Notes: a model not told the origin generated them from the sequence alone. Shown: positions 11,364 through 48,683, counted from the first letter of the stretch. The stretch is DNA of 64,000 nt from an uncultured Eubacteriales bacterium (GCA_964347035.1 CAYFXE010000001.1:48228-112227); one strand, 5' to 3'. Made by a program: numbers and translations.

Positions 11364-13394
11364 ATGAGAAAAATTACACTCTTTTCCTTTTCTCTTTTGC
11401 TGATTCTTTCCTTTGCCGGACTTCAAGGGCAAGAGATATTCGTTGAAGCCAAGACAAAAGACGCTGCGAAAAAGGCCCTGCTCGAAAAATATGGAGAGTC
11501 ACAGCGATTCCGCGTAGAAAAAGGCGTTGACCAAGTCGCCTCACTCTGGAAAGAAGAGGATGGGACGCTAAAGGAATTTGAAGACTTCTGCCAACAGTAT
11601 TTTATCGGCTCTCCTGAGCTTCTGGATCTGAATTTCAGCAGGCTGGAAACAAGTTTTGAAGTCCTGAACGGGAACTTCACCAAGATGATCATCGATTTAA
11701 AGCGTCCTCTTGAGCTTGATTGGGGCAAGATTCTTCCCCTGGATATGGTGTTCGGGCAGTTTAATCCCTCGTCGCACCTGATAGAAGACCTTTTTGCGAA
11801 TACAGTCGCGTTTTTTGTCCTCCTGAACTTTCCTCATTATTCCCTGGCAGAAAAGACCGAGTTGAGCCCAAAATGGAGCCGTAAAGACTGGGCCTACGCC
11901 AGGATGGGAGATGCATTCATCTCGAGAGTTCCCGCGCATGTCTTCCAGAAAATATCCCAGGTCATGACAGCAGCAGATACGTATATTTCGGAATACAATA
12001 TATTCATGGGAAAACTCGTGGACGCTAAGATGAAAACCTACTTTCCAGAGCACCTCAAGCTCATCAGTCACTGGGGCATTAGGGATGAGTTGAAGTCCAG
12101 ATACAGCGATCCTGAGGGTTTTTTCAAGCAGAAGATGATCTACGAAGTCATGATGAGGATCATCAAACAGGAGATTCCAGAGATCGTGATCAACAACCCT
12201 GATTATCTCTGGGATCCCTTCGGGAACAAGGTCTATCAAGACGGAAAAGAAATCGAGGCCATAAGAGAACCGGATACCCGGTATAAGCATTTCATCCAGA
12301 CGTTTAAAGGAATGAAGATGATCGATCTCTACTACCCTTCACTGCCGACCCATATCAAGAGAAGGTTCGAGGAAAACCGGGAAATACCGGAGGCAGAAGT
12401 TGAAGCTCTGTTCACAAGCTTTATTTCGTCACCTCAAGTCCGGAAAGTCGGAGAACTTATCAGCCGGCGGCTGGGGAGGAAGCTGGAACCCTTCGATATT
12501 TGGTATACGGGGTTTAGGTCCGGAAGTTCGATTCCTGAGGAGAAACTGGACAAGATAGTGGCTGAGAGGTATCCAACCGCGGAAGCCCTCCAGAAAGACT
12601 TGAAGAATATCTTGATGAAACTGGGATTTTCCCAGGATCAAGCCGATTTCATCGCTCCCAAGATTGTGGTGGATTCCTCGAGAGGTGTGGGACATGCCTA
12701 CGGAGCAGAGATGAAGTCGGATAAGTCACGCTTGAGGACCAGAGTCCCTAAGACAGGAATGAAGTATAAGGGATTCAACATCGCCATCCATGAATTTGGG
12801 CACTGTGTGGAGCAGACTCTCACCCTCCAGAAGGTTGACCACTATATGCTTCGCGGCGTTCCCAACACAGCCTTTACCGAGGCTTTTGCTTTTGTTTTCC
12901 AGGAAAAAGATCTTGATATTTTGGGGATCAAAACTGAAGATCCCCACAGGAGACACCTGAAGGCCCTCGATGATTTCTGGAATGCCTATGAAATCATGGG
13001 TGTATCTTTGGTGGATATGAAGGCTTGGAACTGGCTTTACGATCACCCCGAGGCCACCCCTGCTGAACTGAAGGAGGCGGTCATCTCCATCGCAAAGAAC
13101 ATATGGAACAAATATTATGCCGACGTTTTCGGAGTCAAGGATCAGCCTATTCTCGCCATTTATTCCCATATGATTGATGCCGCCCTGTATCTTCCTGATT
13201 ACCCTCTCGGACACGTTATCGCCTTCCAGATTCATCAATACCTTGAAGGAAAGAGTCTTGGTGAAGAGATGGAAAGGATGTGTGTGGCCGGGAATATCAT
13301 CCCCCAGGCCTGGATGCAGAATGCCGTCGGCTCAAAGATTTCGTCCAGGATGCTGCTCGATGCCGTGGACGAAGCCTTGGAGCATATGAAGTAG
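11364..13394 (+). CDS. Secreted zinc metallopeptidase, HExxH gluzincin (M3/M32-like)
   Basis: Signal peptide plus the HEFGHCVEQ motif; 676 aa. Confidence 0.5.
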   Translation: MRKITLFSFSLLLILSFAGLQGQEIFVEAKTKDAAKKALLEKYGESQRFRVEKGVDQVASLWKEEDGTLKEFEDFCQQYFIGSPELLDLNFSRLETSFEVLNGNFTKMIIDLKRPLELDWGKILPLDMVFGQFNPSSHLIEDLFANTVAFFVLLNFPHYSLAEKTELSPKWSRKDWAYARMGDAFISRVPAHVFQKISQVMTAADTYISEYNIFMGKLVDAKMKTYFPEHLKLISHWGIRDELKSRYSDPEGFFKQKMIYEVMMRIIKQEIPEIVINNPDYLWDPFGNKVYQDGKEIEAIREPDTRYKHFIQTFKGMKMIDLYYPSLPTHIKRRFEENREIPEAEVEALFTSFISSPQVRKVGELISRRLGRKLEPFDIWYTGFRSGSSIPEEKLDKIVAERYPTAEALQKDLKNILMKLGFSQDQADFIAPKIVVDSSRGVGHAYGAEMKSDKSRLRTRVPKTGMKYKGFNIAIHEFGHCVEQTLTLQKVDHYMLRGVPNTAFTEAFAFVFQEKDLDILGIKTEDPHRRHLKALDDFWNAYEIMGVSLVDMKAWNWLYDHPEATPAELKEAVISIAKNIWNKYYADVFGVKDQPILAIYSHMIDAALYLPDYPLGHVIAFQIHQYLEGKSLGEEMERMCVAGNIIPQAWMQNAVGSKISSRMLLDAVDEALEHMK

Positions 13395-13440: not shown

Positions 13441-14073
13441 ATGACGAGAAAACTGGGTTTTATTCTCATATTCGTATCTTTAGTCTGCCTAGGGTGCCCT
13501 TCAGGGCCTAAAGAAGAGATTCGCTGGGTCACCATGGAAGACATTGCCAAGAGTCTGGAGGACCAGCCGCCGATGAACGTCGGGTTTGATGTGGATGATA
13601 CTGTTCTGTTTTCTACGGCTGGCTATTACTACGGTCAACAGAAGTATTCGCCAGGAAGCAATGCTTATCTCGAGATGGAAGAATTCTGGAATGAGTTGAA
13701 CAATGGGTTGGACAGGTTCAGTCTGCCCAAGCAATGTGCTAAGATCTTGATCGAATTCCATAAAAACCGGGGAGATACCATCTATTTCATCACGGCCAGG
13801 TTGAAAACTCAGACGGAAACAGTGACAGAGCTGCTCGCCAAGACGTTTAACCTGGACAACATCAATCCGGTGATCTTTACCAATTTAAAAGCGAAAGCCA
13901 TTCTGGCGAAAGAGATTCAAGTCTACTACGGAGATTCAGACGCAGATATGAAGGCAGCCATCGAAGCCGGAGTTCGAGGAGTCAGGATCATGCGGGCTGG
14001 GAATTCGACCAAAAGACCGTTCCCTGAATACGGTGCTCTAGGAGAAGAGGTGCTTGTCGACTCTGAGTTTTGA
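13441..14073 (+). CDS. aphA: Class B acid phosphatase (HAD superfamily), lipoprotein
   Basis: Collinear match to E. coli AphA: FDVDDTVLFS...FITAR...YGDSDAD...GVRGVRIMRAGNST...GEEVLVDSEF. Lipobox LVCLGC. Confidence 0.85.
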   Translation: MTRKLGFILIFVSLVCLGCPSGPKEEIRWVTMEDIAKSLEDQPPMNVGFDVDDTVLFSTAGYYYGQQKYSPGSNAYLEMEEFWNELNNGLDRFSLPKQCAKILIEFHKNRGDTIYFITARLKTQTETVTELLAKTFNLDNINPVIFTNLKAKAILAKEIQVYYGDSDADMKAAIEAGVRGVRIMRAGNSTKRPFPEYGALGEEVLVDSEF

Positions 14074-14214
14074 AGACTGACACCCCCCTCCCGCCTAGAG
14101 TGCAAATTAATCTATTATATCCATAGGATAAATAGATTATAAATCGCTCATGTTGTCCAATAAATTGCCCTCCTAGAGGATCCTTCATAAGGAAGAAACC
14201 TCGCTCTTTTCCGA

Positions 14215-14243
14215 TTGACAAGCTTCAGATGCTCTGTTATAAG
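14215..14243 (+). promoter_or_regulatory. Sigma-70-type promoter TTGACA-17-TATAAG embedded in an 11 bp inverted repeat
   Basis: TTGACA at 14215..14220 and TATAAG at 14238..14243 with an exact 17 nt spacer. The flanking palindrome ttgacaagctt...aagcttgtcaa (14215..14251) looks like an operator. Confidence 0.55.
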
Positions 14244-14318
14244 CTTGTCAATAGTAAATTAAGGACGTAAATTAGCTGAGGAATAGACAGGAGCTGTATA
14301 AGCTCGAGAGATGAGTGG

Positions 14319-16847
14319 ATGGGTGTTGAATATTCTCTGCAAACAATCCGAAATTTAGAGAATCTCTTTCAAAGCCTGAAAATCCTCAGGCCTCGCCGTC
14401 GGAAGCGGTATGATCCCGGCACCGAGCTCAAATATAGAATCAAAGGCATCTTCCCAGCAAGAGAAGGACAGATTAGACTGAAAATTGAGCGCTTTGTGGG
14501 GGGTGGTTACGCGGGTCAGGTATACCGGGTGAAGGCTCTGAAGGTAGACCCCGACGAGGAGCCGATCGTCGGCCTTAACGAAGGCTATTCGTACGCCTTG
14601 AAGATCCTCGTCCCCCCAGGAAGATTTTCAAGGTGGTTTCGCAAAATAATTTATGGCCTTGCTTTTCAGGCGCCTTACTCTCTTCAGGTCAATCCTGATG
14701 CAGTCCGAGCCGGAGCCCTCTGGCAGAAGCTGATCCGGCACGGAGCCAGAACGAAGTTCGGTTCTGAAGATGCTGTTGTGGATGTTCTGGCCACTTTCGT
14801 TGACCACGGCCTCGGGAGTTGTGGTGAGATCAGCGAGTGGGTTGAGGGACGGGTGTGGCGGTTTGAAGTGGATGATAATCTGGATGCTAGGATGGGATGG
14901 AAAGTCGGCGAAAGCGAAGAAGGCCTGGGTTCTCCTGAATACCGGGCCAAACGAACTTTTATGGCTAATCTTGTAGCCCTGATGCATGATATGGGCGCTT
15001 CGGAGTTAGCTCGCCAATACGAGTGGTGGACGTTCAAAAGCCAGCCGAATGCGCTCAAACGAGTCGCGAGCGATCCTGACCCTATACAGGGATTAGTCGG
15101 AGTTGATTTCCGGGCCGGCTTGGCGCTCCTTCCATTTTTGCCTCAGTGTCCTGGCGATTTTAAGCTCATCATTAATGGAATCAAAAGAGGCAGTTTAGTC
15201 CAGTTTGACCGAGGAAACATCGAGAAACTCTTGGGCTTCATCGAGAAGCAGGCGGATAACTTTGCTGGAATGGAGGAGGCTGTTTCGGAACTCAGGGAGG
15301 CTGACAAGGCCTACCGCGATTCCTTGCCTGATATTTCCCATCACCATCTTAAATTATTCACCAGTGCAAGATTGTGGAAAGCCATCATGACTAGCAGCAT
15401 AAAAAGCTGGCAAATTCGGGATATCATCGATCAGAAAGCCTCAGAAAAGCTTCCGCGGAAAAGAATTTTAACCCTGATTTATTGGATCTTGGGCCTGCTC
15501 CCGTTTCTGGGGAATTTTATACGTCGAATAGGAGGGCACGCTGTTTATCGCCAGCATTACAAGCATATGTTGACAAGCTTTAATTATTTCCTGCGAACCA
15601 TGCGAGCCGGCATTACCGAGGCCCTGATCCGCTGGCACAGAGCAGGACGGGTCAATGCCCACCGGGCAGAGAAGCTCGCCAGTCAACTCCTGAGGTTCCT
15701 TGCTCATCTACCGCTCTCCATCCTGCCGGCGAAGATGCATCGTTTTTTTTCAGATCGACGGTTTTTTCTCCAATCGATCGATTATATGTTTGCCAGGCCG
15801 ATCAGGCTCTATTTCAAGGCCGATGTCAGGGAGAAGTGGTTGCGGGACATGGTCTCCCAGGGACAGAAAGATGGCATGCTGACCGAAAGCGAAGCTGCCA
15901 GCGTCCAATCCCAGATAAAGGAACCATTCATCCAAAAATACCTGAAGAGTCTGGCTGTTCATATCTGCACTGCCCCGATAACTCAGATCGTCTCGGTCAT
16001 CGTGGCAGTTATCTATATCAGGATGCATCCGGAACTTTCCTGGCAGGAGGCCTCAGTCCATGCCGGACTGATCTTAGGCTTTTTTCAGATTATCCCAATT
16101 TCCCCGGGTTCGATCGTCAGGGGACTGTATGTTACCTTCCTGGTTATCCGAGAACGAAATTTTAAGGATTATAATATTGCTTTCTTTATAAGCTTCTTCA
16201 AATACATCGGTTATCTGGCCTTTCCCATCCAAATGGCCTACCGCTACCCGGATCTCGCCCGTTTCATGGCTGGCCGCTGGGCAGTGGGTGTCTCGCACAT
16301 CGTCCCTGTTTTCGGGGAGCGGGGAGCACTGCTGGAACACTCGGTCTTCGATATGTTCTACAACTATCCCCTGACCTTAAGACGGCGTATGCGAAGCCGC
16401 CGGGACCGCCGGGCGGGTTTGAAGTCGAGATACTGGCATGTTCCCTTGTGCATAATCGCCGGGACGGCTCTTCTAGGGGCTATCGATATGGGTTTTTTCC
16501 GTATCAGGGGATACTTTCCTCAGTTCGGCGAAATATGGTGGCTGGCATTATGGATTCCTTTTGTTATGGCGGCGGCGACCTCTGCCTTGGCCGGGGGAGC
16601 ATTTCTTTCAAAAAGATTTCTCATGGGCGTGGGTTGTGGGATCTTGATCGGAGTCCTTTATGCAGTCCTGAGTGCTGTCGAAGGCCGTTTTTTTATCCAG
16701 GGAGAGGCCGAGATGTTAACCTCGATACAACTTGTCGGCCGGATAGCTGTTGCCGGGCTGTGGAGAGCCTTTCTGTTTGCCATCATGGCCGTCGTCGGTG
16801 TCTTCATCATAGAGACGAGGCGCGTCAAACCGGTCCTTTCTGAATGA
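14319..16847 (+). CDS. Atypical protein-kinase-like domain (ABC1/UbiB/Kdo-kinase-like) fused to a large polytopic membrane domain
   Basis: N-terminal Gly-rich loop GGGYAGQVYRV, VAIK-like YALKIL, HDMG and VDFRAG (DFG-like). The C-terminal ~450 aa contain many hydrophobic helices. Confidence 0.45.
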   Translation: MGVEYSLQTIRNLENLFQSLKILRPRRRKRYDPGTELKYRIKGIFPAREGQIRLKIERFVGGGYAGQVYRVKALKVDPDEEPIVGLNEGYSYALKILVPPGRFSRWFRKIIYGLAFQAPYSLQVNPDAVRAGALWQKLIRHGARTKFGSEDAVVDVLATFVDHGLGSCGEISEWVEGRVWRFEVDDNLDARMGWKVGESEEGLGSPEYRAKRTFMANLVALMHDMGASELARQYEWWTFKSQPNALKRVASDPDPIQGLVGVDFRAGLALLPFLPQCPGDFKLIINGIKRGSLVQFDRGNIEKLLGFIEKQADNFAGMEEAVSELREADKAYRDSLPDISHHHLKLFTSARLWKAIMTSSIKSWQIRDIIDQKASEKLPRKRILTLIYWILGLLPFLGNFIRRIGGHAVYRQHYKHMLTSFNYFLRTMRAGITEALIRWHRAGRVNAHRAEKLASQLLRFLAHLPLSILPAKMHRFFSDRRFFLQSIDYMFARPIRLYFKADVREKWLRDMVSQGQKDGMLTESEAASVQSQIKEPFIQKYLKSLAVHICTAPITQIVSVIVAVIYIRMHPELSWQEASVHAGLILGFFQIIPISPGSIVRGLYVTFLVIRERNFKDYNIAFFISFFKYIGYLAFPIQMAYRYPDLARFMAGRWAVGVSHIVPVFGERGALLEHSVFDMFYNYPLTLRRRMRSRRDRRAGLKSRYWHVPLCIIAGTALLGAIDMGFFRIRGYFPQFGEIWWLALWIPFVMAAATSALAGGAFLSKRFLMGVGCGILIGVLYAVLSAVEGRFFIQGEAEMLTSIQLVGRIAVAGLWRAFLFAIMAVVGVFIIETRRVKPVLSE

Positions 16848-16920: not shown

Positions 16921-18192
16921 CTATTTTTGTCTTGAATATTTTTTCACGAAACGCTTTGCATTAGCTTCGTAGACCTGCATCTTTTTCTCATCTTTGGTGA
17001 CCTTTCTGACAAATATCCCCTGTTTACGATCGATGAGTCCGCCTCGGGCATTGATGATATCCATTGCTTGGGCAAGCCATGTCTGGATGACCGGAAAGTC
17101 GGGATGATGCCGATCGTTCTTATCGATTGGGTATATAATTTTTTTAGCCGCCCAGTAGTCGAGGGCTACCGGATCCTGACTGGCGGCTATCTGCCGAGCA
17201 TGGAAGGTGCTGCTTGCCGGGAATCCAGAGAGCGAGCGATGGGAAACCCAAATGGCGTCCATGATGTTTAAAACCGGTGTGCAGACCGAGACCATCATCT
17301 TACCGCAGGTTTCTCCAAGGCCATTGTAATGACGGAAGGAGCTGTAGCCATCAGACATGGAGAGAATGCCGTAGAAATGTTTAAGGGATGCCGTTATCTC
17401 CGAGCCGCCAGTATCATGGTGCTTAAGCACAGGGACGTTGATCAACTTGAGATTCTTGGCGTAGCTGGCACCTTTCCAGATGCCCCTCTGCAATTCTATC
17501 CTGTGTCCGCCTTGGGTTGTGAAGCAGGGATAGGAAACGTTTTCGTATCTGCGGTATCCATCTGTCACATGGTTGTCTTCAGCGATAAACCGGCTTCTTA
17601 TGGGGTCGAGAAGATAGCAAGAAACGCGAGGATCCCTGAAGATGTTGTCGACGAGATAGGTAAAGGAGTGGGATTCATCAAGCGCATTGGCGTGAACATC
17701 ATTGTCAGTATAATGTTCTCTTGTATCACAATTCAGGCTGCCTCGGCCTTGGCCGTTCTCAAAAATCACGACCTCGCCTGTGAAGATATCAGGGTGATCC
17801 AGAATTCTCTGGATTAGACCCCGGATGAGGTCGCTGTTGGTACAGCCTCTGTATTTCCACTGGGCATTAACCTTGATCAGAACCACGTCCTCAGGCCCGA
17901 TCATGCCTTTCCGGCTCCCAAGAATGGTTTTTTTATCAGAACGGTAAAATTTTAGTCCCTGTTCACTCATCAGGTGGAGAAGGCAGTCGATTCCAGCATG
18001 ATAATTTGCTTGGTCATCGTGATAAAAAGGCTGCTGAGGTGTCTTTTTCACCCAAAAAAGCTCATTTTTTTTGTTTATCCCTTTGGTGTCGAGGAACACG
18101 GACGGAATGAGAGAAGCGGCGAAGGCTCCGCCGGCGACCGTCTTCATGAATTCTCGCCGGTTGTACCTTCGATTTTCTTTAAAATTATTCAT
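16921..18192 (-). CDS. Tat-secreted DUF362-like protein
   Basis: Twin-arginine signal RREFMKTVAGGAFAASL. The core VVLIKVNAQW...HPDIFTGEVVIFENGQGRG resembles the DUF362 pattern. Confidence 0.45.
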   Translation of the reverse strand: MNNFKENRRYNRREFMKTVAGGAFAASLIPSVFLDTKGINKKNELFWVKKTPQQPFYHDDQANYHAGIDCLLHLMSEQGLKFYRSDKKTILGSRKGMIGPEDVVLIKVNAQWKYRGCTNSDLIRGLIQRILDHPDIFTGEVVIFENGQGRGSLNCDTREHYTDNDVHANALDESHSFTYLVDNIFRDPRVSCYLLDPIRSRFIAEDNHVTDGYRRYENVSYPCFTTQGGHRIELQRGIWKGASYAKNLKLINVPVLKHHDTGGSEITASLKHFYGILSMSDGYSSFRHYNGLGETCGKMMVSVCTPVLNIMDAIWVSHRSLSGFPASSTFHARQIAASQDPVALDYWAAKKIIYPIDKNDRHHPDFPVIQTWLAQAMDIINARGGLIDRKQGIFVRKVTKDEKKMQVYEANAKRFVKKYSRQK

Positions 18193-18368: not shown

Positions 18369-19445
18369 TTATAAATACTTATCTTTGTCTTTTTTTCTGA
18401 GGATCTCCACGATATCCTTGACTTTCTGGTCCTGGTCCTTATGACAAATGAGCAGGGCGTCTTCGGTGTCGACCACGACCAGATCCTTAACCCCGACAAG
18501 GGCAGTCAGCTTGCGGGGATTATGGAGGAGGCAGTTTTCTGCGTCCAGAGCAATATTTGCTCCTCTCAAGGCATTCTCTTTATCGTCCTGAGGCCATATG
18601 TCTCTTAAAGAAGACCAGGCCCCTACATCTGACCAGCAGAAATCCCCCACGCCCATCCATACATCTGGAGCCTTTTCCATAAGGGCATAATCGATAGAAA
18701 TTGAGGGGATATCGTCAAAAATAGCCTGGATATTAGCAGCGTCATCTTTTTCAAGGGCGCTCAGAATCCTCTGCCAATACAGGAACATCTCAGGAGCATA
18801 TTGTTCAAGCTTTCGAGCAAAGACAGAAACCTGCCAGATAAACATCCCCGAGTTCCAATAATAATTCCCTTTGTTCAGGAAGGATTTAGCTTGTTCGAGC
18901 TCTGGTTTTTCTTTAAACTCCAGAACCTTGAAGAACTTCTCTTCCCTGATTCGTGTCGGGCTTTCCTCAGAAAACTGAATATAACCGTATCCTGTGGCCG
19001 GATGAGAAGGGGGAATGCCAAAGACAATCAGGTTTTCGCTGTCCGAGGCGGCAGAAGCTCCAGCTTCAAGCTTTATGAGGAACACATCAGCTTCCCTGAT
19101 GAGATGATCGGCGGGGAGGGCAGCTACCACAGCCTCTGGATTCTGATGGTGAATCGAGGCTGTCGCCAGGATTAACGAGGGAGCCGTGTTTTTTCCCTGA
19201 GGCTCAACCAAAAGGTTGGATTCAGGGATTTCTGGCAGGAGCTTGTGTCTGGCCTGGGTTTGCTCCTCGTTGGCGCTGGTATAGATTCTAGAATAAGGAA
19301 TGGATGGGAGAATTCGATGGACGGTTTCCTCGATCATCGTTTTGTCGCTGATAATCGGGAGAAATTGTTTTGGTTTCTTCTTTCGGCTCAAAGGCCAAAA
19401 TCGAGTTCCAGTTCCCCCTGCCATGATCACTGCCCGAAAGTCCAT
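18369..19445 (-). CDS. manC: Mannose-1-phosphate guanylyltransferase
   Basis: MDFRAVIMAGGTGTRFWPLSRKKKPKQF nucleotidyltransferase N-terminus and overall GDP-mannose pyrophosphorylase architecture. Confidence 0.8.
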   Translation of the reverse strand: MDFRAVIMAGGTGTRFWPLSRKKKPKQFLPIISDKTMIEETVHRILPSIPYSRIYTSANEEQTQARHKLLPEIPESNLLVEPQGKNTAPSLILATASIHHQNPEAVVAALPADHLIREADVFLIKLEAGASAASDSENLIVFGIPPSHPATGYGYIQFSEESPTRIREEKFFKVLEFKEKPELEQAKSFLNKGNYYWNSGMFIWQVSVFARKLEQYAPEMFLYWQRILSALEKDDAANIQAIFDDIPSISIDYALMEKAPDVWMGVGDFCWSDVGAWSSLRDIWPQDDKENALRGANIALDAENCLLHNPRKLTALVGVKDLVVVDTEDALLICHKDQDQKVKDIVEILRKKDKDKYL

Positions 19446-19477
19446 TTTTTCCTCGTCTGAAAAGAATAAATTTCAAA

Positions 19478-20848
19478 TCAAGAGTCTGCTAACCTCTTGA
19501 TGACCGTCTCGACGGTATGTTCAACTTCTTTTTTTATGGCCGCCAAGTCTCCTTGGGTGATCGCCTCGAAACGCAGCACCAGGTTTTCCTGGGTATTCGA
19601 GGCTCGAACCAGAGCCCAACCCGTCGGGAAGTTTGCCCTGACACCGTCTATGTCGATAATAGGATATTTTTGAGAAAGTTCTTTCTTGACCTCTTCGACG
19701 ATCTTGAACTTAATTTGATCAGAGGCATAGACTCTGATTTCGGGGGTATGGTACATCTGAGGAAGATCAGAGAGCATCTGGGAAAGCTTTTTTTCGGATC
19801 GAGAAACAATTTCCAGGAGTCGGGCCGAAGAATAGATCGCATCGTCAAACCCGAAATACCTGTCTGCAAAGAAGATATGGCCGCTCATTTCTCCAGCCAG
19901 GAGAGCTTTTTCTTCCTTGATTTTTTTCTTGATCAGAGAATGCCCTGTCTTCCACATCACCGGCCGACCGCCTAATTTTTGAATTTCATCATACAGAAGC
20001 TTGGAAGCTTTGACTTCGGAAATAACCGGGGCACCTGGATTGGCGGGAAGGATATCTCGAGCAAAGATGATCATCAGCTGATCTCCCCAAATAATATTCC
20101 CCTCGTCATCTATTATCCCTATCCTATCGCCATCTCCGTCATAGGCTATTCCTAAATCTGCCTGTGTTTCCGCCACTTTTTGGATGAGGTCCTGAAGGGC
20201 TTCGGGCAGAGTCGGGTCAGGATGATGGTTGGGAAAGGTTCCATCCATCTCACAATAGAGTTCCACGACTTCGCAACCCAATTTTTTGAATATCGGGGAG
20301 GCCACAAAACCTGCCGTGCCGTTTCCGGCGTCAACGATAATTTTTAATTTTTTATCCAGTTTGATGTCTTTAAGGATGAACTCTTCATATTCTGGGATGA
20401 TGTTGTAGCTTGTTTTAGAGTCGCTCTCCTGTTCGACAAATTGGCCATTCTTGATAATGGAATATATTTCTTGGATAGTGGGTCCGTAAAGAGTTTCTTC
20501 CCCCACCATAATCTTGAAGCCGTTGTATTCGGGCGGATTATGGGATCCAGTGATTATGACTCCGGCCTCCTTCTGCTTGTAGTACATGGCGAAATACAGG
20601 GGAGGCGTGGGGATGATCCCCAAGTCGACAACAGCACAACCAGTCGAGAGAAGACCCTTGGTTAGAATATCGGCGAAAGCTGGCGAGCTGAGGCGGCAGT
20701 CTCTCCCCAGTACCACTTCTTTTCTGTCGCGTTGCCGAATATAAGTGCCTATGCCCTTCGCGAGCCACTCGACTGTTTCTGGGGTGAGGTCTTTATCCAC
20801 GGTTCCCCTGATATCGTATTGTCTGAATATGTCTGGGTTGATGTTCAC
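19478..20848 (-). CDS. Phosphomannomutase / phosphoglucomutase
   Basis: Active-site loop TGSHNPPEYNGFK, Mg-binding DGDGDR, 456 aa. Confidence 0.85.
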   Translation of the reverse strand: MNINPDIFRQYDIRGTVDKDLTPETVEWLAKGIGTYIRQRDRKEVVLGRDCRLSSPAFADILTKGLLSTGCAVVDLGIIPTPPLYFAMYYKQKEAGVIITGSHNPPEYNGFKIMVGEETLYGPTIQEIYSIIKNGQFVEQESDSKTSYNIIPEYEEFILKDIKLDKKLKIIVDAGNGTAGFVASPIFKKLGCEVVELYCEMDGTFPNHHPDPTLPEALQDLIQKVAETQADLGIAYDGDGDRIGIIDDEGNIIWGDQLMIIFARDILPANPGAPVISEVKASKLLYDEIQKLGGRPVMWKTGHSLIKKKIKEEKALLAGEMSGHIFFADRYFGFDDAIYSSARLLEIVSRSEKKLSQMLSDLPQMYHTPEIRVYASDQIKFKIVEEVKKELSQKYPIIDIDGVRANFPTGWALVRASNTQENLVLRFEAITQGDLAAIKKEVEHTVETVIKRLADS

Positions 20849-20892
20849 GTTTTTCCTCCTCGATCAGCGGAGGCCATTACCCTCTTCGCTGT

Positions 20893-21465
20893 CTAGGGAT
20901 TATGATCAGGTTTTCCCTTTTTCGAAATATCTCTCAAATCTGCGAGATTCCTGAAGTTTGCCTCGACAGTGCTCCATTTGTCCTGAGATTCGAGGATAAA
21001 TTCGATGAATTCGCGCACAGCTCCTTTCCCCCCGGGCTGGGAACAGATAAAGTGACTCTGTTTTTTGACCTCTGGGTGAGCATCAGCCACGGCTCCTGCT
21101 AGACCTGCGGAGCGGATTACGGTCAAATCTCCCAGGTCGTCTCCGATATAGGCAATCTGTTCAGGATTCAGTTGGTATTTTTCCAAAATTTCATCCAAGC
21201 TATTTTTCTTATCAAGAATCCCTTGGTGAAGTTCATCGATTCTGAGCTTTTCGGCCCTTTTTTCCAGGGATTTTGAGGATTTTCCCGTGATGATTCCCGT
21301 CTTCAGACCGGCTAAATGAGCCAAGATAATTCCTGTGCCGTCTCTGACATTATAGGTTTTAAGCTCTTCCCCATCCGGGAGAATCAGAAGAGTGCCGTCA
21401 GTGAGAGTGCCGTCCACATCCATCAGGATCATTTTTATTTTTCGGGCTCTGTCTTTGTTGGTCAT
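20893..21465 (-). CDS. kdsC: Kdo-8-phosphate phosphatase (HAD)
   Basis: IKMILMDVDGTLTDG...GDDLGD motifs, 190 aa; lies within the kds cluster. Confidence 0.8.
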   Translation of the reverse strand: MTNKDRARKIKMILMDVDGTLTDGTLLILPDGEELKTYNVRDGTGIILAHLAGLKTGIITGKSSKSLEKRAEKLRIDELHQGILDKKNSLDEILEKYQLNPEQIAYIGDDLGDLTVIRSAGLAGAVADAHPEVKKQSHFICSQPGGKGAVREFIEFILESQDKWSTVEANFRNLADLRDISKKGKPDHNP

Positions 21466-22481
21466 CAGAACATCTCTGTTCGCCAGAGGTCATGAAGGTG
21501 GATGATTCCTTCGATTTTTCCCTTTTTGCTCTTGACAATAAGAGAGGTGATTTTGTTCTCCTCCATGATGTTGAGTGCCTCCGTGGCTAAATCATCTCTA
21601 TCGATGGTCTTGGGATCGGGTGTCATACAATCCTCAGCGGTCTTTTCGAGGAAATTTTTTCTGTATTTTTGAACCATCCTTCTCAGGTCGCCGTCAGTGA
21701 TGATGCCCATAAGGGTTCCGTCTTCCTGAATGACACAGGTCATACCGAATTTTTTCCGGCTCATTTCCTCCAGAACATTCCTCATCAGGGTGTCTTTTTT
21801 AACGCGGGGAATCTGGCGGCCCTTGTGCATCAGATGGGCGACTTTCAGGAGCTTCTTACCTGCCTGCCCTTTGGGATGAAAAAAGACAAAGTCTTTTGCC
21901 CCGAATCCTTTTTTCTTCATCAAGGCAATGGCGATCGCGTCTCCCAGGGCTAAGGCGGCGGTGGAGCTCGATGTTGGAATCATGAATGATGGTTCTGCTT
22001 CCCTTTCCACTTTGGCCTCGAGGACAATATCGCTGTATTCGGCCAGCCTGGAATGCTTGTCCCCGGTAATACTTATGAGTTTGACACCGATTCTTTTGAC
22101 GAATTCCAAAAGGTCAACAAGTTCTCGGGTTTCTCCGCTGTAAGAAATGGCTATAAGGATATCATCCTTGAGAATCATACCGAGATCCCCGTGCCCGGCT
22201 TCAGCGGGATGGATGAAGATGGACGGAGTTCCGCAGCTGGCTAAAGTGGCGGCGATCTTGCGGCCAACAAGACCTGACTTGCCCATGCCGGTGACAATCA
22301 CTCGCGAGTTTGAACTATAGATGAGCTCGACAGCTCTAGAAAAATTTTCGTCCAGGGTGGAGGCCAGAGATTCAACGGCCTTGGCTTCTATGTTCAAAAC
22401 CTCTTTACCGGTTTGAAGGATTTCATCTTTTTTCATTGTCTCGCTCTTTCTTAGAAGGGATCTTGGTTTGTATCCCTCCAC
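21465..22481 (-). CDS. kdsD: Arabinose-5-phosphate isomerase (SIS + CBS pair)
   Basis: SIS motif VIVTGMGKSG and tandem C-terminal CBS domains. Confidence 0.85.
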   Translation of the reverse strand: MEGYKPRSLLRKSETMKKDEILQTGKEVLNIEAKAVESLASTLDENFSRAVELIYSSNSRVIVTGMGKSGLVGRKIAATLASCGTPSIFIHPAEAGHGDLGMILKDDILIAISYSGETRELVDLLEFVKRIGVKLISITGDKHSRLAEYSDIVLEAKVEREAEPSFMIPTSSSTAALALGDAIAIALMKKKGFGAKDFVFFHPKGQAGKKLLKVAHLMHKGRQIPRVKKDTLMRNVLEEMSRKKFGMTCVIQEDGTLMGIITDGDLRRMVQKYRKNFLEKTAEDCMTPDPKTIDRDDLATEALNIMEENKITSLIVKSKKGKIEGIIHLHDLWRTEMF

Positions 22482-23299
22482 TTTTTAAGGGCTAGGATGG
22501 AAGCTAGGAGGGGATTGAGGTTATCTAGACTTAGGGCGTTGAGCTTGTCCGATAAGGCCTCTCCGGGATTGTGATGGACTTCCAAGAAGAGCCCATCCGC
22601 TCCTACGCTGACTCCCGCATAAGCGATCGAGGGGATAAATTCAGCCTCTCCCCCTGAATAGATTCCTTCTCCTCCGGGTTTTTGGACACTATGGGAGGCG
22701 TCTATGACCACTGGAAAACCCCATTTTTTCATGATCGGGATGGAACGGACATCGAAAACCAAATTGTTGTATCCAAAGGAAGTTCCTCGCTCGGTAATGA
22801 TGATTTTTTCGTTTCCTTGGTTTAAAGCTTTATCAATGACATTCTGCATATCATAGGGAGAGAGAAACTGTCCCTTTTTGATATTCACCGTTTTTCTTGT
22901 TTTTGCGGCTTCGACGATGAGGTCGGTCTGACGGCTGAGGAAAGCCGGGATCTGGATCACATCCAGCACCTGAGCGGCTGTCTCGATCTGTGAAGTCTCA
23001 TGAACGTCAGAAAGCACAGGGATGTTCAACTCCTCTTTTATTTGCCTGAGAATATCCAACCCCTTTTCGAGGCCTGGTCCGCGGAAAGAATGGAGGGAGG
23101 AACGGTTGGCCTTGTCGTAGGACGCTTTGAAAATAAGCGAAATCGGGAGGTCTTCGCATATTTTTTTTATCTCTTTGGCCATCAGAAAGGCATGATTTTG
23201 GCCTTCTATGACACAGGGGCCTGCAATCAAGAAGAAAGGATTCTCCCCTCCGATCTTGATTTTTTTATTAATGTTTATTTCTCTTACGGCGATGGGCAT
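22451..23299 (-). CDS. kdsA: 2-dehydro-3-deoxyphosphooctonate aldolase (Kdo-8-P synthase)
   Basis: FFLIAGPCVIEG...ASYDKANRSS... motifs. The ORF-track N-terminal extension overlaps pyrG, so the start is placed at MPIAVREIN (23299). Confidence 0.8.
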   Translation of the reverse strand: MPIAVREININKKIKIGGENPFFLIAGPCVIEGQNHAFLMAKEIKKICEDLPISLIFKASYDKANRSSLHSFRGPGLEKGLDILRQIKEELNIPVLSDVHETSQIETAAQVLDVIQIPAFLSRQTDLIVEAAKTRKTVNIKKGQFLSPYDMQNVIDKALNQGNEKIIITERGTSFGYNNLVFDVRSIPIMKKWGFPVVIDASHSVQKPGGEGIYSGGEAEFIPSIAYAGVSVGADGLFLEVHHNPGEALSDKLNALSLDNLNPLLASILALKKWRDTNQDPF

Positions 23300-24878
23300 A
23301 GCTTGCTCCGATAAAGGCTTTGAAGAGCGGATGAGGCTTGAGCGGCTTTGATTTGAACTCCGGATGATACTGACATCCCAGAAACCATGGATGGTTCTTG
23401 ATCTCCATGATTTCAACCAAACCGTAATCAGGATTCTTCCCCGAGATGACCAGACCAGCTCTGGACAGAGCCTCCTCGTATTCTGGGTTGAACTCATAGC
23501 GGTGGCGGTGTCGTTCGTAGATATTCACTTTTCTGTAGGCTTTCTCGGCAAAAGATCCTTTATGGAGGCGACACTGGTATTCACCCAGTCTCATGGTGCC
23601 TCCCAACTTTTTAATGCCTTTAAGCTCTCTCCATTTGAAGAAAATCCTATGGGGAGTTTTGGAATTAAACTCTGTGCTGTTAGCCCCCTTGAGACCGGCT
23701 ATTTTTCTGGCAAATTCGATGGTTGCGCATTGCATACCAAGACAGATTCCGAAGTAAGGAATTTTGTGCTCTCGGGCAAATGTGACGGCCTTGATTTTTC
23801 CCTCTATTCCCCGGATACCAAAACCTCCGGGAACAAGAATGCCATCGGCTTTTCCCAGGACTGCTTCCGTCTTTTTCTTCTCCATATCCTCGGCTTCGAC
23901 CCAGGAAAGATTGAGTCTTAATTTGTGATGAGTGGCTGCATGGATGAGGGCTTGAGTCAAGCTTATGTAAGAGTCATGGAGACCGGCATACTTTCCCACC
24001 AAAGCGATGGTCACTTCATCTGCAGGATTCTTCATCCTCTCGACCATCTTCTTCCACTGACTGAGGCGGCGTCTTCGCGGAGCAAAGTTCAATTGTTTAA
24101 GGATGATGTTATCCAGCTTTTCTTGGGCAAATATAAGGGGAATCTCGTAAATATTATCCACATCTTTGGCTGCGATCACCGCATCTAGGGAGACATTAGT
24201 AAAGAGAGAGATTTTCGCTTTGATATCATCGCTAAGAAACCTATCGGTTCGGCAGAGGATGATATCAGGCTGAATCCCGATTGCCCGTAGCTCTCGGACG
24301 CTGTGTTGGGTGGGTTTTGTCTTGAGTTCTCCAGAGGTTTTTATGTAGGGAACTAAAGTCAGATGAATAAACAGAGAGTTCTCTGTTCCTAGGGTAAGCC
24401 GCATCTGTCGTATGGCCTCGAGAAAGGGCTGACTTTCTATATCCCCGACCGTGCCCCCGATCTCGACGATGACGATGTCATTCTCGTCGGCCACAGAGTA
24501 GAAGGCATTTTTGATTTCGTCTGTAACATGAGGAATAACCTGAACGGTTTTTCCGAGGAAATCTCCCATCCTTTCCTTTTTAATGATGTTTTCGTAGATT
24601 TTACCAGCAGTCCAGTTGTTAGCCTTTGTCGTCTGAGTCGAGGTGAATCGTTCATAATGGCCCAAATCTAGGTCTGTTTCGGCTCCGTCATCTGTCACAT
24701 AGACTTCTCCGTGTTGGAAGGGATTCATGGTTCCCGGATCCACATTTAGGTAGGGATCAAACTTTTGGAGGGTGATGCGGTAGCCGTGGCTTTCCAAAAG
24801 ACGCCCGATAGAAGCGGCCGCAATGCCTTTGCCTAAGGCAGAGAGCACTCCTCCGGTGATAAAAATGAATTTACTCAT
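23268..24878 (-). CDS. pyrG: CTP synthase
   Basis: MSKFIFITGGVLSALGKGI... N-terminus and C-terminal glutamine amidotransferase (GICLGMQ), 536 aa. Confidence 0.9.
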   Translation of the reverse strand: MSKFIFITGGVLSALGKGIAAASIGRLLESHGYRITLQKFDPYLNVDPGTMNPFQHGEVYVTDDGAETDLDLGHYERFTSTQTTKANNWTAGKIYENIIKKERMGDFLGKTVQVIPHVTDEIKNAFYSVADENDIVIVEIGGTVGDIESQPFLEAIRQMRLTLGTENSLFIHLTLVPYIKTSGELKTKPTQHSVRELRAIGIQPDIILCRTDRFLSDDIKAKISLFTNVSLDAVIAAKDVDNIYEIPLIFAQEKLDNIILKQLNFAPRRRRLSQWKKMVERMKNPADEVTIALVGKYAGLHDSYISLTQALIHAATHHKLRLNLSWVEAEDMEKKKTEAVLGKADGILVPGGFGIRGIEGKIKAVTFAREHKIPYFGICLGMQCATIEFARKIAGLKGANSTEFNSKTPHRIFFKWRELKGIKKLGGTMRLGEYQCRLHKGSFAEKAYRKVNIYERHRHRYEFNPEYEEALSRAGLVISGKNPDYGLVEIMEIKNHPWFLGCQYHPEFKSKPLKPHPLFKAFIGASYAHRRKRNKH

Positions 24879-47607: not shown

Positions 47608-48683
47608 GCAATAGAAGCAAAAAGCCGGGACCAGCTCGTTGGTTTGAAGAACGCCTCGGCCTAACCAGCCTAACCCGTTTTTTAACAGAGAAGACAGTCC
47701 CTCAGCATAAACACTCCATCTGGTATTACACGGGGAGTGCGATTCTGTTGTTTTTCTCGATTCAGGTCGTTACCGGCTTTATTCTCCTTTTCTACTTCAA
47801 GCCCACCCTAGAAAAAGCCAACGAAAGTGTGGGTCGGATCATGACCGAAGTCCCTCTGGGGTGGATCCTGCGTTCGGTTCATTTCTGGTCGTCGACATTC
47901 ATGATCGCTATCGTTTTCATCCATCTGATGAGCATCTGGTTTACCAAAAGCTACCGCAAACCTCGGGAGTTGACCTGGATGAGTGGGGTGTTCCTCCTGA
48001 TCGTGTCCCTGGCCTTCGGGTTTACGGGCTATCTCCGGCCCTGGGATGATCTATCTGTTTCAGCCACCAAAGTCGGCACTGATATTCCCCGCTCTATTCC
48101 CGTCGTGGGCGCCTGGGCGACCAAGTTTCTCCGGGGTGGAGAAGACGTGACCGGAGACACGCTGACGCGCTTTTTTGGCTTTCATGTCTGTATCCTTCCT
48201 CTGTTTACCCTGTTTTTGATCGGAATTCACGTCTACTTCATCCAAAAACAGGGGATCAGTCTTCCTCTCAGAGCGGAAATCAGGAACGAAAAAGTGAAGG
48301 AACTTCCTTTCTGGCCCAATTTTGTCTACAGGGAGATGATTGTTTGGCTCATCCTTCTGGGTATTCTTATCACTCTGTCCATCTTTTTTCCTCCATCGTT
48401 AGACAAAGCAGCGGATTTGATGGCCCCGGCTCCGGAGGGAATCAAGCCCGAGTGGTATTTTCTGTTCCTGTTCCAGACTCTGAAGATTTTCCCAGCGCAT
48501 ATCCTCTTCGTCAGTGGAGATACGTTGGCTGCGCTGTTAATTTTGCTTTTCGGGGGCTTTTTTTTCTTTTTGCCTCTTATCGATAATAGACCTCAAGAGA
48601 AGAAAGGGAAAGCCATCACTCTCATCGCCATCGTCTTCCTGATATATGCGGTCGCTATGAGTGTCTGGAGCCTTATGGAATGA
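47604..48683 (+). CDS. Cytochrome b (bc/b6f-type, fused N- and C-terminal domains)
   Basis: Conserved heme-ligand His residues in TM helices (SVHFWSSTFM, FHVCILP) and PEWY motif (KPEWYFLF). Confidence 0.8.
   Translation: MSNRSKKPGPARWFEERLGLTSLTRFLTEKTVPQHKHSIWYYTGSAILLFFSIQVVTGFILLFYFKPTLEKANESVGRIMTEVPLGWILRSVHFWSSTFMIAIVFIHLMSIWFTKSYRKPRELTWMSGVFLLIVSLAFGFTGYLRPWDDLSVSATKVGTDIPRSIPVVGAWATKFLRGGEDVTGDTLTRFFGFHVCILPLFTLFLIGIHVYFIQKQGISLPLRAEIRNEKVKELPFWPNFVYREMIVWLILLGILITLSIFFPPSLDKAADLMAPAPEGIKPEWYFLFLFQTLKIFPAHILFVSGDTLAALLILLFGGFFFFLPLIDNRPQEKKGKAITLIAIVFLIYAVAMSVWSLME

Follow-up and report, generated by a model that had tools for sequence, protein, structure and literature searches.

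An undescribed, widespread bacterial family of inner-membrane proteins that very probably joins a protein-kinase-like domain to a membrane core without detectable known relatives

The window analysed here is a stretch of 64,000 nucleotides (nt) from an uncultured Eubacteriales bacterium (GCA_964347035.1, CAYFXE010000001.1:48228-112227), and the gene considered occupies positions 14319–16847 of its plus strand, an open reading frame (ORF) encoding a protein of 842 amino acids (aa). The gap to the upstream gene is 245 bp, and the downstream gene (16921–18192, minus strand) is convergent and separated by 73 bp; the ORF map thus agrees on every point with the first-pass annotation, made from the sequence alone, which had described the gene as isolated from its neighbours. 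In its source genome the gene is probably transcribed on its own, by way of a conserved promoter of sigma-70-like type whose -10 element is extended. Its product begins with a kinase-like domain, continues with a hydrophobic hairpin and a basic amphipathic region, and ends in a polytopic membrane part.

More than 2976 homologues of the protein were found in a collection of 5.8 billion proteins. The best 120 of them are full length, with 59–100% identity, and where these are named the name is 'hypothetical protein', two of them carrying a GNAT label from the Joint Genome Institute and none a Pfam domain. In a scan with one genome per GTDB species, at least 541 species were found to carry the family, the top matches being mostly Aminicenantes. 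To judge from the closest relatives, the source of the window is probably an Aminicenantes-like bacterium. Full-length copies with 50–54% identity over ~838 aa are present in metagenome-assembled genomes (MAGs) labelled Planctomycetota/Phycisphaerae/Sedimentisphaerales, Desulfobacterales, Latescibacterota, Cloacimonadota, Nitrospiraceae and Zixibacteria. Identity of about 50% in an 840-aa protein between MAGs labelled Aminicenantes, Planctomycetota, Desulfobacterota, Latescibacterota and Cloacimonadota means an unusually strong constraint, and this in a protein with no Pfam domain, no name and no solved relative.

Scans of the 842-aa protein against Pfam, NCBIfam and PADLOC gave nothing above noise, and the same is true of Pfam scans of 10 distant relatives. 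Searches of the PDB sequences with the protein and with two profiles led to no significant match, the best kinase match having an E value of 1.3; a match to a MurJ chimera (E 0.33) was discounted because it rests mostly on the cytochrome b562 fusion tag. No description of the family, its motifs or a fusion of kinase-like and membrane parts was found in the literature searched, and the earlier remark that this fusion does not belong to any recognised family is borne out by all these empty searches. A family profile run against 1.84 billion cluster representatives recovered only 535 proteins, the 150 best of which match the family itself strongly (E 2e-50 or better). A search that had strayed into the very large protein-kinase or ABC1 families would have returned many more, and the family can therefore be called closed. 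It may be concluded that this is an undescribed, ancient and widespread bacterial family of inner-membrane proteins, and we are largely confident that its architecture is that of a protein-kinase-like (PKL) domain followed by a membrane core without any detectable known relative. The kinase-like fold is already known; the family, the variant of the active site and the membrane core are new.

Three architectures were distinguished by the search of representatives and by alignments. Full forms of ~830–910 aa resemble the 842-aa protein. Intermediate forms of ~660–770 aa, some of them in MAGs labelled Chloroflexota, cover only profile positions ~27–695 and are without the last four membrane helices, and short forms of ~440–530 aa have a truncated and degenerate N-terminal domain and an intact membrane core. 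One relative of 1216 aa (P0145) carries ~500 aa of extra C-terminal region with more membrane helices; a very weak match of this region to GDSL/SGNH lipases (E 0.02, below the cutoff) would, if real, make it a lipid-related fusion.

The PKL domain comprises residues ~30–345 (14406–15353, plus strand) and was delimited by the order of elements in an AlphaFold2 (AF2) model, Foldseek matches to kinases, conservation and hhalign register. Its landmarks are the Gly-loop (61–68), Lys95, the hinge EWVEG (173–177), the loop T238-x-x-S-Q-x-N244 and D263-F-R. The model, based on a 61-sequence alignment, has a predicted local distance difference test score (pLDDT) of 77.5 and a predicted TM-score (pTM) of 0.72, and its elements follow the canonical kinase order: β1, Gly-loop, β2, β3 with the Lys, helices, β4, β5, hinge, αE, loop, β strand and DF(R). 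Particularly, strands 49–63 and 66–78 flank the Gly-loop, strand 91–96 holds Lys95, and strands 156–162 and 167–173 are followed by the hinge E173-W-V-E-G, a long helix (206–225), the loop leading to N244, short strands and D263-F-R. In the Foldseek search of the PDB with this model, the top ~45 matches are all kinase domains (PknB, CK2, GSK3, CDK8, Mps1, JAK and others) aligned over 210–245 columns, mostly with a probability of ~1. By hhalign the Gly-loop and Lys are brought into line with PKA, PknB and UbiB, and in PknB also the hinge, with probabilities of 2–10%; these alignments serve as supporting evidence only. The profile and structure check proposed for the N-terminus ended with kinase domains alone among the top structural matches, and the kinase-like reading of the first ~350 aa is retained as the best one.

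Conservation, which is the stronger argument for the kinase-like reading, was counted in 32 diverse full-size relatives with 25–51% identity. All of them keep G61, G63, V68, N244 and D263; A65 and K95 are kept in 31 and Q67 in 30. The nucleotide-binding loop and the Lys motif named at the outset, GGGYAGQVYRV (61–71) and YALKIL (92–97), are indeed present, their consensus being G61-[GS]-G63-x-A65-G-Q67-V68 and, in β3, A93-x-K95, and the Gly-loop, the β3 Lys, the Mg-binding Asn and the Asp of DF(R) are conserved in canonical order. D263 belongs to V-D-F-R-x-G (VDFRAG at 262–267 in the protein of the window) and lies 19 residues after N244. The supposed catalytic-like motif HDMG (223–226) did not survive this comparison, with H223 being His in 15/32 and D224 being Asp in only 4/32 relatives. 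A catalytic Asp of the HRD type is likewise missing: position 239, five residues before N244, is Phe or Cys in the loop W-x-T238-x-x-S241-Q242-x-N244, and K240 is Lys in 16 and Val in 13 of the 32 sequences. To judge from these residues, the domain is one that keeps what is needed for Mg-ATP binding and has lost the usual catalytic base, and the conserved Gly-loop, K95, N244 and D263 argue that binding of nucleotide and Mg is under selection. The protein is a well-defined candidate for the group of kinase-fold proteins whose task is other than protein phosphorylation: its predicted Mg-ATP site is intact, the catalytic Asp is missing, and the domain is permanently fused to a conserved membrane core.

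The sections of the membrane part were assigned by hydropathy and the AF2 model. The part had initially been described as ~450 aa of transmembrane helices, and a polytopic membrane domain is certainly present, but the stretch really consists of a hydrophobic hairpin, a basic amphipathic region and only then about 10 membrane helices (536–837). The hairpin, a helix-break-helix with the sequence GLLPFLG (residues 382–406; 15462–15536, plus strand), coincides with a hydropathy peak and is modelled as helices 382–391 and 397–406; its P395 is invariant in 32/32 long forms. The following ~130 aa (residues 408–535; 15540–15923, plus strand) are rich in Arg, Lys and His and modelled as helices with pLDDT of 76–92, and W439, G443 and R444 are conserved there. 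By the positive-inside rule this region probably lies on the cytoplasmic face of the membrane, and, since a basic region should remain cytoplasmic, the hairpin before it is probably a re-entrant membrane anchor.

The membrane core (residues 536–700, six segments; 15924–16418, plus strand) is kept in all three architectures. Its motifs are P593-x-S-P-G-S-x-x-R601-G and P663-x-F-G-E-R-G-x-L-x-E673-H, in which R601 is invariant and E673 nearly so (37/39 aligned sequences). In the short forms the Gly-loop is lost and N244 is replaced by Arg, whereas P593, P596, R601, P663, G666, G669, E673 and P684 are all kept. It is accordingly the core that all members have in common, with the ATP site as an extra retained by most of them; the short forms provide a natural control, a comparison built into the family itself. 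No fold match to the core was found in the PDB and no transporter fold was detected, nor did hhalign reveal an internal repeat in it (536–615 against 613–700). The C-terminal four-helix membrane bundle (residues 705–837; 16431–16829, plus strand), preceded by a strongly positive loop, is an accessory part, absent from the forms of ~660–770 aa and the least conserved portion of the alignment. A separate model of the C-terminal part gave no significant Foldseek match in the PDB, the best being LucB (E 0.25), followed by bundles of FtsX, LolCE and HrtB with E >1.

The genomic context of the family was studied by calling ORFs in 84 loci and clustering the neighbours. In up to 16 Aminicenantes loci the family gene is closely preceded, on its own strand, by kdsA, kdsD, kdsC, manB (phosphomannomutase, PMM) and manC, a group that is the conserved genomic companion of the family in Aminicenantes. 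In seven of the loci (L016, L018, L020, L025, L030, L031 and L033) manC is the gene directly before the family gene, at a distance of -4 to 82 nt. The window and its closest relatives have the kdsA-kdsD-kdsC-manB-manC group inverted, 1.5–6.6 kb downstream; in the window it occupies 18369–23497 on the minus strand and, according to Pfam and NCBIfam matches, includes manC (18369–19445), manB/PMM (19478–20848), kdsC (20893–21465), kdsD (21465–22481) and kdsA (22451–23497). In three loci of MAGs labelled Deltaproteobacteria, manB is the divergently transcribed neighbour. Two short-form genes from different 50%-identity clusters lie 14 and 7 nt after a gene of KpsF/KdsD arabinose-5-phosphate isomerase. 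In about 16 loci of Phycisphaerae type, pgpA (PF04608, E 2e-36) lies 9–40 nt upstream of the family gene, and two unnamed genes, as well as purA and uppS, follow downstream in such genomes. One MAG of Pseudomonadota has divergent genes of DegT and an epimerase beside a distant family member, and three distant members of ~700 aa, one of them from a largely Chloroflexota-type subgroup, have no conserved neighbours. The theme shared by these neighbours points to biogenesis of envelope glycolipids and phospholipids, as an association and not as proof. The linkage to genes of Kdo (3-deoxy-D-manno-octulosonic acid), GDP-mannose and pgpA turns this into a testable hypothesis on envelope glycolipids or phospholipids in phyla with poorly understood envelopes.

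The two genes downstream in the Phycisphaerae-type loci (L039, L046, L059, L066 and similar ones) encode conserved proteins of ~254 aa and ~162 aa, the latter with two hydrophobic segments, from the same strand as the family gene. Neither has a match in Pfam or NCBIfam, and they are possible partners of the family in this clade. A radical SAM/SPASM protein is sometimes encoded before the pair. A reading of the system as one of defence was rejected in view of the lack of a PADLOC match and the synteny with housekeeping genes.

In the functional picture that we prefer, the membrane core would handle an envelope lipid and the kinase-fold domain would couple ATP binding and hydrolysis, or phosphotransfer, to this handling; on the whole of the analysis it is a serious but still tentative proposal. 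The cytoplasmic PKL domain, tethered through the hydrophobic hairpin and the ~130-aa basic amphipathic region to the six-segment core, would bind and hydrolyse ATP, or transfer phosphate to a lipid, at the cytoplasmic face of the membrane, and the core would bind or move an envelope lipid or a lipid-linked sugar intermediate. The pathway served would be the biogenesis of an envelope glycolipid or phospholipid, with the Kdo/lipopolysaccharide (LPS) core, a GDP-mannose-dependent glycolipid and phosphatidylglycerol as candidates. The proposed ATP-coupled handling of a lipid is analogous to that by UbiB and COQ8, which are kinase-fold ATPases delivering lipid intermediates (PMC13418538). A bolder version, in our opinion an unlikely one, is that the family is a new ATP-driven membrane machine, whose membrane domain, of novel fold and permanently wired to a kinase-fold ATPase, would extract, flip or deliver a lipid of the envelope. 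The cargo of such a machine would be Kdo-lipid A or the LPS core, a mannosylated glycolipid or a phosphatidylglycerol precursor. If true, it would be a primary-active lipid handler with an engine neither of the ATP-binding cassette (ABC) type nor of the P type, and it would operate in hundreds of mostly uncultured species from at least seven named phylum-level groups, many of them sediment or subsurface lineages.

Several points weigh against the preferred picture of ATP-coupled lipid handling. Each Foldseek match to a kinase is weak (E 0.014–0.25, TM-score to the target 0.25–0.36, root-mean-square deviation 7–9 Å), and a significant link with any kinase family is given by no sequence method, with P values of 0.003–0.03 in hhalign. 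Without a catalytic Asp the domain could be a non-catalytic sensor of ATP, and the short forms, in which the ATP site is lost, show a core able to do without it. The context is guilt by association, limited in part to single clades, and no neighbour proved conserved in the Chloroflexota or other distant members compared. Finally, family members are found in MAGs labelled Chloroflexota. This phylum is generally held to lack LPS, so a strict role in Kdo or LPS metabolism cannot be universal.

According to the main rival, the N-terminal domain is a pseudokinase that binds ATP without catalysis. The membrane core would form a transporter or channel under its regulation or gating, in the manner of the pseudokinase domain of mycobacterial MviN/MurJ, the chemistry or transport being wholly the work of the membrane part. 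The Phe or Cys in place of the catalytic Asp and the presence of Lys at position 240 in only half of the relatives fit this reading, and so do the short forms, which have lost the Gly-loop, the Lys and the Asn and kept the core, from which it follows that the core has a function independent of ATP. The invariant R601 and the nearly invariant E673 would suit a transport or binding site as well. On the other hand, the Gly-loop, K95, N244 and D263 vary little or not at all at 25–51% identity, many active atypical PKL enzymes also do without the canonical base, and a transporter fold was not detected. We consider the pseudokinase rather improbable.

That the gene so often neighbours kdsA, kdsD and kdsC in Aminicenantes, and kdsD in its short forms, suggests another reading. 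The protein would here be a membrane-embedded kinase of a lipid or small molecule of the LPS-kinase type, like KdkA and WaaP; at the inner leaflet its substrate would be Kdo-lipid A or a core sugar, and the membrane core would keep the lipid in place. A Kdo kinase was among the possibilities raised by the first-pass annotation, and the intact residues of the ATP site, with D-F-R after the Mg-binding Asn, are consistent with it. However, neither PF06293 (Kdo) nor any other model of LPS kinases matches, even with E values up to 1 admitted, the catalytic Asp is missing, the short forms that lie beside kdsD are exactly those without the ATP site, and the family extends to the Chloroflexota-labelled MAGs. 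Such a kinase is therefore doubtful, more so than the pseudokinase.

The promoter of the family gene is a separate matter. Its -35 hexamer TTGACA (14215–14220, plus strand) and TATAAG are separated by a spacer of 17 nt, and the latter (14238–14243) forms, together with the TG at 14235–14236, an extended -10 element within the conserved block GCTCTGTTATAAGC (14231–14244, plus strand). For TTGACA-N15-19-TATAAK the 64 kb contain a single match, where 0.02 would be expected; a scan with the sigma-70 consensus skipped this promoter, since TATAAG has no T at position 6 of the hexamer. The upstream regions of 19 Aminicenantes loci, the window and 18 relatives, were aligned. The -35 hexamer is invariant in 19/19 of them, and the 17-nt spacing, TGtTATAAG and the block GCTCTGTTATAAGC are invariant or nearly so, while the flanks are otherwise ~61% identical; the last base of the -10 hexamer is G, not T, in 19/19 loci. 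In most loci the promoter block lies ~98–110 nt upstream of the ATG, whichever gene is found upstream, and it is missing where the family gene abuts manC. The three closest relatives, with 75–86% protein identity, share the invariant GATTGACA-N9-GGCTCTGTTATAAGCTTGTCAATAGAAAATCA, the intergenic regions of two of them being otherwise divergent. The near-consensus promoter recognised at first reading is consequently not only present but strongly conserved across the 18 relatives, and on this alignment it is best taken as a sigma-70-like promoter of extended -10 type that is specific to the gene and conserved with it. The block GCTCTGTTATAAGC is conserved beyond the need of the -10 hexamer alone; a sigma preference peculiar to the lineage, or some other factor that binds DNA here, may lie behind this. 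It is rare to find a sigma-70-like promoter preserved base for base across many uncultured Aminicenantes.

The presumed 5' leader of ~70 nt (14244–14318, plus strand), with an inferred start of transcription, has no predicted base pairs in an RNAalifold analysis of 17 orthologous leaders, and Rfam gave no match in the whole window; a riboswitch or structured leader was rejected for these reasons.

The promoter is overlapped by a perfect inverted repeat at 14214–14252, with arms ATTGACAAGCTT (14214–14225) and AAGCTTGTCAAT (14241–14252) around a 15-nt loop. The 11-bp repeat reported before is thus real, its arms being in fact one base longer, 12 nt. The suggestion that it is probably a site for a repressor is not supported, for the palindrome is absent from 18/18 orthologous promoters, in which conservation is limited to the -35 and the -10 block, and no second palindromic copy exists in the window. 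In the relatives the left arm past TTGACAA is replaced by ACCCT, TCCCC or CAAAT, and the right arm reads AAGCTTCTCTT or AAGCTTTTCCT outside the closest clade; L001–L004 retain an 8-nt remnant, ATTGACAA / TTGTCAAT, and the remaining relatives none. As regards further copies that would define a regulon, the 64 kb contain none, and a metagenome-wide scan gave 49 matches, none of them an orthologous promoter and most of them in an unrelated foldback repeat, TAGCCTGTCTTGACAAGCTTTGT...ACAAAGCTTGTCAAGACAGGCTA. Since the palindrome is not conserved in relatives, which the first-pass annotation itself had named as a finding against its proposal, the operator is refuted as a conserved feature, and the palindrome is a lineage-specific accident or novelty.

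It might still serve as a true operator, one for a repressor that this lineage alone has gained in recent times, and its arms do bracket the -35 and the start of transcription, the left one having been created by two substitutions relative to the closest relative; the probability of finding perfect arms of 11 nt or more in an intergenic region with this composition and a length of 245 nt is ~0.002, which makes the 12-nt arms unlikely by chance there. Against this, ~0.75 perfect repeats of at least 11 nt are expected by chance per 64-kb window, the right arm falls within a block whose conservation has another cause, no more than 8 nt are common to the closest clade, and, as described above, the palindrome is missing from the orthologous promoters and from the rest of the window, and the 49 metagenome matches include no orthologous promoter. 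We regard the recent operator as very improbable.

Several repeats were noted beside the palindrome. The window contains one other perfect 11-nt inverted repeat with a short loop, at 48208–48253, where CCCTGTTTTTG is followed by 24 nt and then by its complement. A lone exact half-site, TTGACAAGCTT, lies at 15570–15580 (plus strand) inside the coding sequence of the family gene, has no partner arm and is probably there by chance. The foldback repeat, with termini TAGCCTGTCTTGACAAGCTTTGT...ACAAAGCTTGTCAAGACAGGCTA and a variable centre, resembles miniature inverted-repeat transposable elements (MITEs) and is abundant in metagenome contigs, mostly from ERZ17400xx samples (L086–L134); it shares an 11-mer with the palindrome of the window by coincidence.

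The neighbouring genes of the window include, upstream, an AphA-type class B acid phosphatase (13441–14073, plus strand; TIGR01672 with 247.6 bits against a cutoff of 195.8, and a PF03767 match). It is syntenic in the closest relatives only (L001–L004) and probably stands outside the system of the family gene. Its N-terminus is lipoprotein-like (LVCLGC). The upstream slot is thus occupied by this phosphatase in the window and by a different one, PgpA, in Phycisphaerae-type genomes, and coincidence is possible either way. Further upstream, at 11364–13394 (plus strand), an ORF of 676 aa has a signal-like N-terminus and a motif of zinc-metalloprotease type, HEFGH; it is syntenic in L001 and L003/L004 and, having no match in Pfam or NCBIfam, is another unnamed conserved protein. 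The product of the convergent gene at 16921–18192, a gene whose synteny extends to L001 and L002, belongs to DUF362 (PF04015) and has an N-terminus, NRREFMKTVAGGAFAASL, that resembles a twin-arginine (Tat) signal.

The weakest of the alternatives on function, namely that the protein is a divergent ABC1/UbiB member whose membrane anchor has grown and whose task lies in the synthesis of quinones or prenyl lipids, can scarcely be credited: the A-G-Q-V of the Gly-loop, the K-I-L-x-P after the Lys and the hinge E-W-x-x-G resemble UbiB motifs, hhalign pairs GQVY...ALKILRP with AQVH...VIKVIRP of E. coli UbiB, and both are membrane-anchored PKL proteins, but that alignment has a probability of 2.5%, PF03109 gives no match at E up to 1, the profile search of 1.84 billion proteins returned family members only, a conserved KxGQ extension is lacking in residues 1–55 ('REGQ' at 48–51 is not conserved in the 61-sequence alignment), and the genes next to it point to sugar and phospholipid pathways, not to quinone biosynthesis, so that, with no sequence test placing the domain in ABC1/UbiB, the claim of membership is largely refuted.

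The preferred reading, a kinase-fold domain coupled to a lipid-handling core, may nevertheless be compared with UbiB/ABC1/COQ8, which share with the family a PKL fold with an intact ATP site, C-terminal helices attached to the membrane and some motif resemblance in the Gly-loop and β3 region. In those proteins, too, ATP is thought to serve hydrophobic lipid intermediates rather than protein phosphorylation, and the UbiB family has an N-terminal KxGQ extension covering the substrate cleft (PMC13418538). The family described here has neither this extension, nor a PF03109 match, nor a catalytic Asp before N244; its membrane part of ~460 aa has conserved motifs of its own, whereas UbiB has one or two anchor helices, and its genes neighbour those of Kdo, mannose and pgpA rather than those of quinones.

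Hanks-type Ser/Thr kinases (PknB, PDB 3orm) are the best structural matches of the domain and have the Gly-loop, the β3 Lys, the hinge, the Mg-binding Asn and the Asp of DFx in the same order, the hhalign alignment with PknB extending over 93 columns from the Gly-loop to the hinge. In contrast to them, the family has no Pkinase (PF00069) match in Pfam and no Asp of HRD, no APE motif or αC Glu was identified in it, Q136 being conserved at the place of the latter, and it ends in a polytopic membrane domain, not in a single transmembrane helix with an extracellular sensor.

The Kdo and LPS-core kinases (KdkA, WaaP; PF06293) are PKL-fold enzymes that act on a membrane glycolipid at the inner leaflet, and the family gene is found repeatedly beside Kdo genes, which is a matter of context and does not define membership. 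They are, however, peripheral proteins without a polytopic domain, and the family has no sequence match to them in Pfam or NCBIfam and no catalytic Asp, its short forms beside kdsD being devoid of the ATP site. In mycobacterial MviN/MurJ a polytopic lipid-handling membrane domain is fused to a cytoplasmic pseudokinase domain of kinase fold, and a polytopic membrane domain and a kinase-fold domain are likewise united in one protein here. In this family, however, the order is reversed, with the kinase-like domain at the N-terminus, the membrane domain has no similarity to MurJ/MOP, and the residues of the ATP site are conserved.

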